From contig NZ_JAEDAM010000061.1 of assembly GCF_018420025.1 (NCBI RefSeq), positions 1-7,624 on the forward strand: DNA of 7,624 bases, read 5' to 3'. Position 1 is the stretch's first letter; each line of letters opens with the position of its first letter. Positions 1 to 7,624 of this stretch are shown here, piece by piece. The translations under genes and the position numbers were made by a program. The notes beneath the pieces are model-generated. The model had not been told where the DNA came from and searched no databases. It saw only the letters and a list, made by a program, of their open reading frames with translations. Source of the DNA: Candidatus Vampirococcus lugosii. GTDB lineage: Bacteria > Patescibacteriota > Gracilibacteria > Absconditabacterales > Absconditicoccaceae.

Positions 1-1452
1 ATTTGCAAATCTTTCTTCATCATTAAATATAGTATAAAAATTACTAGATCAATATGTACCAATTCAAGTAATATTTGATTCAAATTCACTACTAGCAGAT
101 ACTGTTTCAATTCAAGAATTAATTACATTAAATATTTCTCATTGAGAAGAAAAGCAATACATACCATCTTTCAAAAGATTTAAAGTACATCAATTTATAT
201 CTACAGGAATATCGTAATTAATACTTGTTCATCTTACATCATTATTAATTGCTTTTAATAAAGCTCATTTATTTCAAGATATATTTAATCAATTATTATA
301 TACAATACTATTTAATTCTCATAAAACTTCCAGTTCATCTTCAGTAAATGAATAAACATAATCAGATGAAACTCAAGAAATACTTACAATATTAAATCAT
401 TTTAAATATTCACTATTTAAAACAGTTTTTAATTGTTTTATATTTTGAGAAAATCTTCAGGTTTGTTCTAATAAATCTAATTTTTTTTCTATTTCTTTAT
501 ATTTTTCCATTTTTTGATCAGAATCTGCTGGAATTCTTCTAAACAGATCTATATCTTTCGTCAAATCTTCTACTGTAAAATCAATAACAACTTGTCATTC
601 AGGAGTATTAACTATATTTTCTTTATCTCATTCAATAAGTGTAGATAAAACAGCAAACAATAAATATATTACTAATACAATTCATAAAACTATAGATATA
701 GGGAATTTATTGTCTACGAAAAAATCTTTCATTTTATAAATTTTTTTGTAATCATATCAGAATTTATTTTCTGTACTATCATCTTTAATGATTGAATCAA
801 ATTCAAGTCTAAAAAAAGATATAAAACTAATATTATTATTAGATATTCTTGATCTAACAAGTTCATCAAATTCTTTAAAATTATTTTCTATACTATTTTC
901 TGTATCATTCAACAATTCTTGTAATTCAGATTTTTCAACTATATCAGAAACTTTACAAGCAACTGTCAATATTTTATCTCAATCTTCAAGTTCTCACTCT
1001 ATAAATTCTGAAAAAATATTTATTTTTTCATTTCATTCCAAATCATTATCAACCATATAATTAACTTTTCAATCTCTGAAAATTACAGTGCTAATATCTC
1101 ATATCATACTTGACATATAAGAATCTTGAAAAAATATTTGTAAATTTCATCTTATAGTAAAGAAATCAACATCATGTATTTTTTCTGAAAATGTTATTAA
1201 TTTATTGTTCATAGCTTGAAGTTTATCTTCAATTTTACTTTGAATTTGTTTAGTTGTATAATCTTGTGAATAAGATAAATTTTCTTCTATATCAGCAATA
1301 AATTCCGAAAAAAGATCTTTTTGATATTCCAAAAATTTATCTGTAAGAAAAACTATATCTACATTCAAAAAAATGCCATCTCCAAAATCCTTATAAACAT
1401 TAAGTTTATTTATATTTTCTCAAAAATATTTTTTATCTTTAAAAAGTTTCAT
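1..1452 (-). CDS. Hypothetical single-pass membrane protein with no recognised family. The 3' end runs off the left edge of the window. Read with table 25.
   Basis: The ATG at 1450-1452 is preceded by an in-frame TAA at 1474-1476. The same frame has no TAA or TAG down to position 1. It joins track ORFs 1147..1368 and 757..969, both of which end only at TGA. I count about 24 in-frame TGA codons by hand. One strongly hydrophobic segment, FPISIVYGIVLVIYLLFAVLSTLI, is encoded at 634-705. Upstream of it lies an acidic, helix-like N-terminal region of ~230 aa; downstream is a G/S/N-rich C-terminal region. Confidence 0.7.
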
Positions 1453-1500
1453 AATATCAAAAATTAATTTTAGTTATCTAAAAAAAGAATAATAAACTCA

Positions 1501-1528
1501 TATATAATTAATTTATTTATTTTTTCAA
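1501..1528 (-). promoter_or_regulatory. Candidate sigma70-like promoter for the 1..1452 gene (minus strand TTGAAA-16 nt-TATATA)
   Basis: On the minus strand, TTGAAA (plus 1523-1528) and TATATA (plus 1501-1506) are separated by 16 nt, about 50 nt upstream of ATG 1452. They lie in the only sizeable intergenic gap (1453-1557). Such hexamers arise easily by chance in DNA this AT-rich. Confidence 0.2.
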
Positions 1529-6137: not shown

Positions 6138-6166
6138 CGTTAATTTAATTTAGTTTATAAAATATT

Positions 6167-7624
6167 TTATGGTTCAAATGTTTCTGGATCTTTGTCTTCT
6201 TGGATTTTTCATTCGTAGTAGACATTATATTTATCTTTTGTATAGTCACTATCTTCTTTAAAAATTTCAAATGTTTCTGGATCTGATCATTTTATCTTTT
6301 CTCATCTAAAATAAACATTATTTTTATCTCTTGAATATCTAGTACCTTTAAAAACTTCAAAAGTATCAGGATCTGAATCTTTTATTGGTTTATTCTCAAA
6401 ATAGATATAATTTTGATCAATACCATAATCTCAATCTATATGTTCAAATTCTCTTGGATCTGTCCATACTGTAGAGTATCATTCTTGCACATATTCTGGA
6501 TCTTCATTCCACGATATTTTTAATACATTTTCTTTATAATACATCATTCAATCATATGAATAATAATTTCATCAAAAGCTTTCATAGTTTTCTGGATCTT
6601 TGTCTTCTTGGATTTCTCACCTATGATACACATTATTTTTATCTTTTGCATATCATTCATAAAGATATCAAAATGTATCCGGATCTGCTCATTCTATCTT
6701 TTCTCATCTAAAATAAACATTATTTTTATCTCTTGAATATCTAGTACCTTTAAAAATTTCAAAACTACCAGCATCTAATCAATCTAGTATTTCTCAATAT
6801 TTGTAAACATAATTTTTATCTTTTGCATATCTGTTTTCATAGCCTCAAATATCAACAGGATGATATTCTAAAATTTCAAAAGTATCTGGATGTGCTAAAT
6901 CTATCTTTACTCACCAATAATAAACATAATTTTTATCTTTTGAATAAGCTGTATTTCTTTGAAAAACTTTAAAATATTTTCACTCTACTTTATTAAGTTT
7001 TTCACAACCCAAATAAACATTATTATTTATAATTAAATAAAAACTTCTATATGCTTTTATTATATCAATATTATTTTCATCTAAAGTATTTAATTTTTTT
7101 AATAATTCTCATCTACAGTAGATATTATTTTTTTTCTTATACACTTCTAATCCAAAATCATCATCTCATAATATTGTAAAAGTATTAGGATTTATATTTT
7201 TTTTAATATTTCATTTATATACATTGTTTTTATCTCTTGCATATCTCCAGCTTTCCTGATATACTTCAAAAGTATTTGGATCTGCTCATTCTATTTTTTC
7301 TCAATTAAAATAAACAAAATTATCTTCTATATGATAATTACTTCCCAATTCTTCATACAATATAGAAACTTTTTCTGAACTTATATTTTCTATTTTATCT
7401 CATTTTACTTTTGAAACTACTTCATATTTTTCTTTTGTCTTATCCTCAAATTCTAGTATTACATTAAAATTATATTTATCATCATCTTTTCTAATATTTT
7501 TAACTTCTGTTGATTCTAATTCTTTATACCAAGATTTAAAAGTTTCCAAATCAATATTTGAATTTAATCTCATTTCAAATGCTTTTTTCAATTCTCATTT
7601 TTCCATTAAATTATAATATTCTTT
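6167..7624 (-). CDS. DKNYY-family repeat protein with about 10-11 DKNYY-type repeats. The 5' end is probably beyond the right edge of the window; an internal ATG at 7604-7606 is an alternative start.
   Basis: The stop is TAA 6167-6169, and the frame is open to position 7624 when TGA is sense (about 25 in-frame TGA). It includes track ORF 7400..7591.

Repeats of the form xDPxTFEvxxxxYxKDKNNVYxx[TGA]xxIx[TGA] include:
- YARDKNNVYKG
- YSKDKNYVYYWG
- YAKDKNYVYKYG
- YSRDKNNVYFRGEKIEGADPDTF
- YAKDKNNVYHRG
- YTKDKYNVYYEG. Confidence 0.8.
6181..6207. repeat. Copy A of a perfect 27-nt direct repeat, part of the same ~400-nt intragenic duplication
   Basis: tttctggatctttgtcttcttggattt occurs at 6181-6207 and again at 6589-6615 (offset 408 nt). 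On the minus strand it encodes IQEDKDPE. Confidence 0.85.
6293..6354. repeat. Copy A of a perfect 62-nt direct repeat lying inside the DKNYY gene
   Basis: The sequence tatcttttctcatctaaaataaacattatttttatctcttgaatatctagtacctttaaaaa is identical at 6293-6354 and 6695-6756. I checked it base by base. On the minus strand it encodes FKGTRYSRDKNNVYFRGEKI. Confidence 0.9.
6589..6615. repeat. Copy B of the perfect 27-nt direct repeat
   Basis: It is identical to 6181-6207. Confidence 0.85.
6695..6756. repeat. Copy B of the perfect 62-nt direct repeat, offset 402 nt from copy A
   Basis: It is identical to 6293-6354. The flanks 6679-6694 and 6277-6292 are near-identical, with a few mismatches. Confidence 0.9.

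Follow-up and report, generated by a model that had tools for sequence, protein, structure and literature searches.

Evidence that UGA is read as glycine in a contig of the predatory bacterium Candidatus Vampirococcus lugosii

Which amino acid, if any, does UGA specify in a contig whose genes come into view when that codon is treated as sense? The stretch of DNA analyzed here (the window) is a complete contig (7,624 nt) of Candidatus Vampirococcus lugosii, a predatory bacterium of the Absconditabacteria (SR1) in the CPR, and has a GC content of 21.9%. As a preliminary description of the sequence had noted, and as a listing of table-11 open reading frames confirms, no standard-code frame in the window exceeds 130 aa. 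When TGA is read as sense, five open stretches of 485, 931, 177, 423, and 491 codons are found, all on the minus strand and together covering 98.2% of the window. The preliminary description had counted four TAA-ended frames with a coverage of ~98%; the coverage and all four TAA codons were correctly seen, but there is a fifth frame (1-1452), which runs off the edge, and one of the four TAA codons (2830-2832) does not end a gene but interrupts, as a nonsense codon, a reading frame that relatives carry as one gene. Translated with table 25, all five frames are exact matches to NCBI proteins of Candidatus Vampirococcus lugosii (MBS8122253-57), in keeping with the original assignment to the Absconditabacteria. 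On the comparisons presented below, we hold it almost certain (a probability of about 0.97) that UGA encodes glycine in this organism, that UGG remains a tryptophan codon, and that UAA is the stop codon used here. The features of the window are collected in Table 1.

Table 1. Genes and individual codons of the window, with coordinates on the 7,624-nt contig
Feature	Position	Strand	Details	NCBI record
DKNYY-repeat protein	6167-7624	-	485 codons, 25 in-frame TGA; TAA stop 6167-6169; 5' end cut by window edge	MBS8122253.1 (exact), named "DKNYY domain-containing protein, partial"
DUF3160 lipoprotein	3354-6137	-	927 aa; ATG 6135-6137; TAA stop 3354-3356; lipobox LN[TGA]C; 43 in-frame TGA, 7 GGN, 10 TGG	MBS8122257.1 (identical, G at all 43 TGA)
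Memo (AmmeMemoRadiSam protein B-like), N-terminal half	2830-3363	-	177 codons, 9 TGA; ATG 3361-3363, overlapping the DUF3160 end by 10 nt; ends at TAA 2830-2832	MBS8122256.1
Memo C-terminal half and PGA_cap/CapA domain	1558-2829	-	423 codons, 16 TGA; TAA stop 1558-1560	MBS8122255.1, called as just 405 aa from GTG 2773-2775
In-frame TAA splitting the Memo-CapA gene	2830-2832	-	From comparison with relatives and a second read set	
HWG motif, G	1834-1836	-	TGA; preceding W (1837-1839) is TGG	
YSLGNF motif, G	1684-1686	-	TGA	
NNHxxDxG motif, G	2074-2076	-	TGA	
Lipobox position -1, LN[TGA]C	6081-6083	-	TGA	
Sole CGN codon, CGG in CapA	1717-1719	-	ID[CGG]YQDKP; CapA codon 371; conserved as CGG/CGA in relatives	
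Hypothetical membrane protein	1-1452	-	ATG 1450-1452; 484 codons, 24 TGA; 3' end off window	MBS8122254.1, "hypothetical protein, partial"

Frames of this kind might in principle be accidents in a noncoding stretch, or in a string of pseudogenes, that is subject to the standard code, and the want of any open table-11 frame longer than 130 aa would fit such a view. We regard it as exceedingly unlikely. The longest run free of TAA and TAG extends over 931 codons, as compared with a maximum of 173 and a mean of 98 in 200 shuffled sequences, and the probability of such a run calculated from base composition is minute (ln P ~ -82). Base composition predicts ~53 in-frame TGA codons, and 117 are observed, close to the ~115 of an earlier count by hand. 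Four Pfam families are matched with E-values from 1e-11 to 1e-86, and a second read set of the organism retains TGA at all 64 of the codons compared. Moreover, the same genes in 15 relatives contain 4-33 in-frame TGA codons and no TAA or TAG. UAA and UAG are evidently kept as stops: all four frame ends within the window are TAA, and neither triplet interrupts the matched reading frames of 80 homologous loci.

Those 80 genomic loci encode homologues of the DUF3160 lipoprotein, and we classed them by their own in-frame TGA codons into 65 that have none and the 15 recoded relatives just mentioned. Loci were used at the DNA level in place of database proteins, which were dropped as independent evidence because they come mostly from recoded relatives and had been translated with code 4 (Trp 4-6%, Gly 1-2%). 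(The DKNYY-repeat protein and the hypothetical membrane protein gave no tblastn match to the 80 loci, and the membrane protein had no significant match in Pfam.) The preliminary description had proposed a tabulation of the residue found at each TGA column, and the outcome was a preference for Gly with Trp nearly absent. Across the 65 homologues without TGA, the columns held by TGA in the window contain Gly in 698 of 1605 cells (43.5%, against a background of 6.1%), Trp in 6 (0.4%), and Cys in 3. A comparable frequency of Gly (42%) is seen at the window's GGN columns, and Trp is found at 56% in its TGG columns. Gly is the majority residue in 12 of the 25 well-covered TGA columns, three of which are invariant and one of which has Gly in 64 of 65 homologues, and Trp is the majority residue in none. 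Among distant homologues roughly half of all TGA columns vary, and for this reason not every site is informative by itself. When each of the 20 residues was placed at TGA and scored against a profile HMM built from the 65 homologues, Gly was best (413.5 bits), followed by Ser (377.7 bits), with masked sequence (X) at 361.9 bits and Trp the worst of all at 334.5 bits. The Pfam model for DUF3160 gave 289.5 bits with Gly and 229.7 bits with Trp.

Scoring with Pfam models, which had likewise been suggested at the outset, favored Gly for PGA_cap and Memo as well as for DUF3160, but not for DKNYY. For PGA_cap the scores were 164.3 bits with Gly, 148.6 with Ser, 145.3 with X, and 139.0 with Trp, which was the worst of seven variants; Cys fell below the masked sequence. 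The Memo model gave 44.2 bits with Gly and 41.2 with Trp, and its match spans the TAA once the two halves are joined. Scores for DKNYY (A 210.2, X 192.2, G 172.5, W 170.5, and S 152.2 bits) showed no discrimination, and we set the whole-protein test aside as uninterpretable: the number of matched stretches varied between 3 and 5, and a ranking of A > X > G ≈ W > S cannot be rationalized biologically. A motif-anchored tabulation in DKNYY homologues placed Gly first at both positions of the repeat.

Individual motifs can be followed in the same way. Every motif position listed in the preliminary description, namely those of Table 1 together with 1726-1728 and the DKNYY repeat positions 6704/6689, 6302/6287, and 7301/7286, is a minus-strand TGA in the context given for it. 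The G of HWG corresponds to GGN in all 38 standard-code homologues, in which the preceding W is nearly always TGG, and the G of YSLGNF is likewise Gly in 38 of 38; for NNHxxDxG the figure is 26 of 34. In a solved CapA structure (PDB 8gq9), Gly occupies four of five aligned TGA positions, including those of YSLGNF and NNHxxDxG. When the TGA columns of the whole Memo-CapA gene are taken together, 36% of the 567 cells from standard-code homologues are Gly and 3 are Trp. Two of the suggested motifs need amendment. At the HPHVAQ[TGA] column the 38 standard-code homologues differ among themselves (P 11, S 6, and G 5), so that this is not a conserved-Gly motif, and the repeat EKIE[TGA]ADP, although its TGA positions are as described, reads EKIK[g]SDP in the copy at 6302/6287. 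Finally, the lipobox consensus has [GAS] at position -1, and database relatives of the lipoprotein show W (a TGA mistranslated with code 4), G, or A in that column.

UGA is also the selenocysteine codon of bacteria that use the standard code, and the in-frame UGA codons might be taken for selenocysteine or for sites of programmed read-through. We assign this reading a probability of virtually nil. The 117 sites amount to 4.7% of codons and are spread over five unrelated proteins; Cys is as rare at the TGA columns, and scores as poorly in PGA_cap, as noted above; and a scan of the window with Rfam at gathering thresholds matched no RNA family, SECIS included.

Tryptophan is the residue that code 4 assigns to UGA in the Mycoplasmatales, the Entomoplasmatales, and several insect endosymbionts, where, as here, a stop codon has become sense in a low-GC, reduced genome. 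Reading UGA as Trp would yield the same long open reading frames, and many deposited sequences of relatives show W at these very positions, a consequence of code-4 gene calling rather than of biology. This reading is nevertheless very unlikely, given the near absence of Trp from the TGA columns of standard-code homologues and its last place in both the DUF3160 scan and the PGA_cap comparison. Conserved Trp positions in the window are TGG, among them the W of HWG and, as had been pointed out before, the W of RLTDENW; in relatives they are TGG or CGA and never TGA, and no relative has TGA at any of the window's TGG columns. Codon counts also agree with Gly, as the earlier estimates (Gly ~5-6%, TGA ~80% of Gly codons, and Trp ~5-6% were TGA to mean Trp) had anticipated. 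With 27 GGN and 18 TGG codons in the reading frames, Gly totals 5.77% of residues and TGA makes up 81.2% of its codons; if TGA were Trp, the Trp content would reach 5.41%. The warning that a table-11 or table-4 reading would mislead is borne out, in that the former yields fragments and the latter Trp-riddled proteins.

Recoded relatives show the interchange expected of synonymous codons for glycine: at the window's TGA columns they have GGN 204 times, TGA 109 times, and TGG not once. Opposite the window's TGA codons, the orthologue in Ca. Absconditicoccus praedator, the closest named relative (64% identity, same gene order), has TGA 12 times and GGN 9 times. Where the G column of HWG could be aligned in recoded relatives, it is TGA in four and GGA in two. 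The share of UGA among Gly codons tracks GC content and is 81% in the window, 61% over the 21.7 kb of the A. praedator locus, and 11-75% in DUF3160 from the 15 other relatives.

How is UGA likely to be decoded, and why is it so frequent? Published work on the clade suggests that a tRNA-Gly bearing the anticodon UCA would decode it and that release factor 2 would be absent. Extreme AT pressure (21.9% GC) may have made UGA the main Gly codon; containing one G/C fewer than either GGA or GGU, it would be favored under such pressure. Clade genomes that lack tRNA-UCA have release factor 2 (Shulgina and Eddy 2021; PMC8629427), and release factor 2 is not mentioned in the description of Candidatus Vampirococcus lugosii (Moreira et al. 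2021; PMC8080830). A tRNA-Gly(UCA) would be expected to carry the identity elements G1:C72, C2:G71, G3:C70, and U73. In a scan for tRNA genes, none was found in the window, and no tRNA-UCA was found in the 15 recoded loci or in the A. praedator locus; the only tRNAs detected in the loci of relatives were tRNA-Lys(CUU) and tRNA-His(GUG).

A further comparison concerns the TAA that divides the Memo-CapA gene. In ten recoded relatives this column is occupied by GGA, GGT, or TGA, and in A. praedator by TGA; TGA is found as well in contig L081 (run SRR13241709), which is 99.4% identical to the window and encodes an unbroken product of 601 aa. To judge from these comparisons, a single G-to-A change in a TGA (Gly) codon gave rise to the TAA. 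The split annotation of Memo and CapA probably stems from this single TGA-to-TAA difference, which is absent from another read set.

Is table 25 the complete code of the organism? Using Codetta, Shulgina and Eddy (2021, eLife; PMC8629427) predicted that CGA and CGG encode Trp in the Absconditabacteria. This extended code is clear in the relatives that we fetched, whose CGA and CGG columns contain Trp at 44.7% and 43.8%, respectively, in standard-code homologues and which use CGA for ~20-85% of their Trp; in six of them, CGA encodes the W of HWG in CapA. The window's TGG columns pair in relatives with TGG 46 times, with CGA 42 times, and with CGG 11 times, and its AGA columns pair with AGA 127 times and with CGA or CGG never. 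The window itself differs, having no CGA, CGT, or CGC and a single CGG among its 2,496 codons, with all 18 of its Trp codons being UGG. That lone CGG lies in a column that is CGG in A. praedator, CGA in four relatives (L002, L004, L005, and L013), and CGG or CGA in six lineages in all; AGA or AGG appears in none of the nine aligned recoded relatives, though Arg is written almost exclusively as AGA (51 of 52 codons in the window, 106 of 145 in A. praedator). The CGG probably specifies Trp and not Arg, a judgment based on a single codon whose column is variable.

The possibility that table 25 is complete, with CGA and CGG still Arg codons and the CGG translated as Arg just as at NCBI, deserves consideration, although we think it less likely than not. 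With no CGA and one CGG, nothing in the window points directly to a second reassignment, and its exclusive use of UGG for Trp departs from the heavy use of CGA in relatives. The column is, moreover, variable in standard-code homologues, where V, I, Y, C, W, E, K, and R are found (R being CGT twice and CGG once). This reading must then account for a column in which relatives never show their usual Arg codon, for AGA columns that never pair with CGA or CGG when the window's Trp columns do so 53 times, and for the Codetta prediction. (A search of the literature on CGG in Absconditicoccus found nothing relevant.) Because relatives read CGA and CGG as Trp and the one CGG of the window is conserved, table 25 is probably slightly incomplete.

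Genetic code 25 of the Absconditabacteria (SR1) and Gracilibacteria was reportedly described in 2013 by Campbell and colleagues and by Rinke and colleagues. The window shares with that code, as set out for this organism by Moreira et al. (2021; PMC8080830), in-frame UGA aligned to Gly, UGG as Trp, UAA as stop, and an AT-rich genome; it differs in no respect in kind and, in degree, by the 81% share of UGA. The same authors stated that UGA encodes Gly and called genes with Prodigal and table 25; their work comprised three read sets obtained by whole-genome amplification, two with MDA and one with MALBAC (BioProject PRJNA678638). Reading UGA as Gly here is correct but not new, and the contig teaches nothing new about genetic codes: the right code has been public since 2021 and is used in the GenBank annotation. 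In public protein collections, many relatives are mistranslated, showing W in place of Gly and R in place of Trp. It may be worth correcting the record in two places, the split Memo/CapA annotation and the CGG that is probably Trp rather than Arg. We incline, at somewhat better than even odds, to the view that table 25 is not the full Vampirococcus code, in that CGG (and CGA, absent here) would mean Trp, as in other Absconditabacteria, and the Arg of the deposited CapA would be wrong; with its CGN codons nearly extinct and UGA supplying most of its Gly codons, the lineage would then stand at the far end of an AT-driven turnover of codons.

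The window has a G+C content of 21.9%, and under the standard code (table 11) it holds just three open reading frames of at least 80 aa, the longest of 130 aa. When TAA and TAG are taken as the sole stops, the minus strand contains open stretches of 485, 931, 177, 423, and 491 codons, and 98.2% of the window is coding. Given the base composition, 8.5% of codons should be TAA or TAG, so that the 931-codon run has an ln P of about -82; in shuffled sequences (n = 200) the corresponding run reached at most 173 codons (mean 98). The five frames together contain 117 in-frame TGA codons, as against some 53 predicted by composition, along with 27 GGN and 18 TGG codons. 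Read as glycine, TGA brings Gly to 5.77% of residues, with 81.2% of it coming from TGA; read as tryptophan, it brings Trp to 5.41%.

Genes in the window
Feature	Coordinates	Strand	Remarks
DKNYY-repeat protein	6167-7624	minus	Pfam; 5' end cut
DUF3160 lipoprotein	3354-6137	minus	Pfam
Memo domain fused to PGA_cap/CapA	1558-3363	minus	Pfam; broken by in-frame TAA
Membrane protein (NCBI 'hypothetical protein')	1-1452	minus	484 codons, 24 TGA, central hydrophobic segment; runs off window

The membrane protein gave no significant Pfam match and had no homologue in the loci fetched for comparison; a tRNA scan of the window found none, and an Rfam search of it matched no family. The ATG of the Memo gene (3361-3363, minus) overlaps the end of the DUF3160 gene as ATGA, in which TGA is a Gly codon; the real stop of DUF3160 is the TAA at 3354-3356, two codons farther on, so that the genes overlap by 10 nt. 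A Memo–CapA or CapA gene directly follows DUF3160, about 100-300 nt downstream of the match, in more than 50 of 80 DUF3160 loci, and the adjacency of DUF3160 and CapA extends to standard-code Anaerolineae, Deltaproteobacteria, and many CPR bacteria. The two form a conserved gene pair.

Which residue does UGA specify? Database homologues were rejected as a poor control, since in most of them W makes up 4-6% of residues and G 1-2%, the mark of relatives translated by code 4 (UGA as Trp). We therefore fetched the 80 DUF3160 loci and sorted them by their own DNA. Sixty-five had no in-frame TGA (the standard-code set: Anaerolineae, Deltaproteobacteria, Acidobacteriota, Bacillota, and many other CPR), and 15 had between 4 and 33 TGA in frame but neither TAA nor TAG (the recoded set: SR1, Absconditabacterales, and further MAGs).

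Among the 65 standard-code DUF3160 sequences, the columns occupied by TGA in the window comprise 1605 cells, of which 698 were Gly (43.5%, against a background of 6.1%) and 6 were Trp, while Gly made up 42% at window GGN columns and Trp 56% at window TGG columns. Gly was the majority residue in 12 of 25 well-covered TGA columns (three of them invariant and one 64/65), and Trp in none. Likewise, when all 20 residues were tried at TGA against a profile HMM of these 65 sequences, Gly scored best (413.5 bits) and Ser next (377.7), with 361.9 for the masked sequence and Trp the lowest of the 20 at 334.5. The Pfam profiles ranked the two readings in the same order: 289.5 for Gly and 229.7 for Trp with DUF3160, 44.2 and 41.2 with Memo, and 164.3 and 139.0 with PGA_cap, for which Ser (148.6), Arg (146.7), Ala (146.4), a masked residue (145.3), and Cys (141.7) fell in between. 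At the Memo–CapA TGA columns, standard-code homologues had 36% Gly and Trp in 3 of 567 cells, and in a solved structure of the CapA family (8gq9) Gly occupies four of the five TGA positions that align.

The preliminary description had read glycine from conserved motifs, and each coordinate it cited proved on checking to be a minus-strand TGA with the claimed peptide around it, or TGG in the case of the HWG tryptophan. The TGA of HWG and that of YSLGNF each fall on a position that is Gly in 38 of 38 standard-code homologues, and that of NNHxxDxG on one that is Gly in 26 of 34. The HPHVAQ motif is weaker support than claimed, its column being variable (P 11, S 6, G 5 of 38). As to the DKNYY repeat, the Pfam score does not discriminate, but a motif-anchored count over some 1,000 repeats in homologues finds Gly to be the commonest residue at each of the two TGA positions (33% and 29%; Trp below 2%).

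The recoded relatives agree. At window TGA columns the 15 show 204 GGN and 109 TGA codons but not a single TGG. In the orthologue from Candidatus Absconditicoccus praedator, the closest named relative (64% identity, gene order unchanged), window TGA codons align with TGA in 12 cases, with GGN in 9, and with other codons in 3. The TGA share of Gly codons rises as GC falls, from 11-35% at 32-42% GC through 48-75% in five high-TGA relatives at 27-34% GC to 86% in the DUF3160 gene of the window at 22% GC. tRNA scans of the fetched loci yielded no informative tRNA, and the mechanism by which UGA would be decoded is one that we infer from published work on the clade (PMC8629427). MAG taxonomic labels do not follow the genetic code: of the loci labelled 'Candidatus Peribacteria', L003, L005, L006, and L013 carry numerous in-frame TGA codons as well as CGA at Trp positions, and L036 and L044 have none; L035 and L043, labelled Gracilibacteria, are without in-frame TGA in the DUF3160 gene.

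The observation of in-frame UGA is thus confirmed and its assignment to glycine across the window supported, and the statement in the preliminary description that no lineages but Absconditabacteria and Gracilibacteria are known to read UGA as Gly agrees with the literature consulted (PMC8629427). It is correct, yet already published and in use in public annotation: translated with table 25, each of the five frames exactly matches a Candidatus Vampirococcus lugosii entry at NCBI (MBS8122253.1 to MBS8122257.1), and the genome paper gives UGA as a glycine codon and used Prodigal with table 25 for gene calling (PMC8080830). Because the code is known and the genome published, nothing in the code itself is novel.

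The preliminary description missed a TAA at 2830-2832 (minus) inside the Memo domain (KEH[g]I*EHFPYI, where [g] is encoded by TGA), which leads NCBI to annotate two proteins, a 177-aa fragment and a 405-aa CapA whose start codon is an internal GTG. In relatives the Memo–PGA_cap fusion is one protein of 540-600 aa, and all 10 recoded relatives that have the region carry GGA, GGT, or TGA at this column. In A. praedator the codon is TGA. TGA also stands there in L081, a 4,471-nt contig assembled from a second read set (SRR13241709). This contig shares 99.4% identity with the window, and its Memo–CapA gene is unbroken, with a product of 601 aa. The TAA is therefore a single G-to-A step from a Gly codon, and represents either a strain-specific nonsense allele or an error of whole-genome amplification or assembly; the genome was derived from MDA and MALBAC products (PMC8080830). 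L081 differs from window positions 1512-5979 by 23 substitutions in 22 codons, and its DUF3160 gene has one additional in-frame TGA. Of the 22 codon differences, 17 alter the amino acid, 4 are synonymous, and one is the TAA/TGA site. The non-synonymous excess suggests that the differences arose by faulty amplification and not by divergence of strains.

A second departure concerns arginine codons. Shulgina & Eddy predicted that CGA and CGG are also read as Trp in Absconditabacteria (PMC8629427). At columns where our recoded relatives have CGA, CGG, or TGG, Trp accounts for 44.7%, 43.8%, and 41.7% of standard-code cells, respectively. At window TGG columns these relatives hold TGG 46, CGA 42, and CGG 11 times, and at window AGA columns they hold AGA 127 times and CGA or CGG never. 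CGA encodes the W of HWG in six relatives, and in some (L003, L005) it is commoner than TGG as a Trp codon. With CGA and CGG at conserved Trp positions of both DUF3160 and the downstream CapA, the Codetta prediction is reproduced independently in two gene families. Meanwhile, public translations of relatives (P0002-P0091, P0094-P0211) mostly show W at TGA (4-6% Trp) and R at CGA/CGG, and the HWG tryptophan is split between W (59) and R (55) in database proteins; the clade is widely mistranslated by metagenome gene callers.

Among the 2,496 codons of the window, CGA, CGT, and CGC are absent and CGG occurs once (1717-1719, minus; ID[CGG]YQDKP in CapA), arginine being otherwise encoded by 51 AGA and one AGG. 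A. praedator likewise has CGG in this column, four other recoded relatives have CGA, and none of the nine recoded relatives aligned has AGA or AGG, which would be hard to explain were CGG a synonym of AGA. This CGG is probably Trp, although a single codon in a variable column is not decisive, and the R deposited at NCBI under table 25, which gives Arg for CGG, is then probably wrong. What the window offers beyond the known code is the TGA-to-TAA split of Memo–CapA and a likely CGG tryptophan codon that lies outside table 25.
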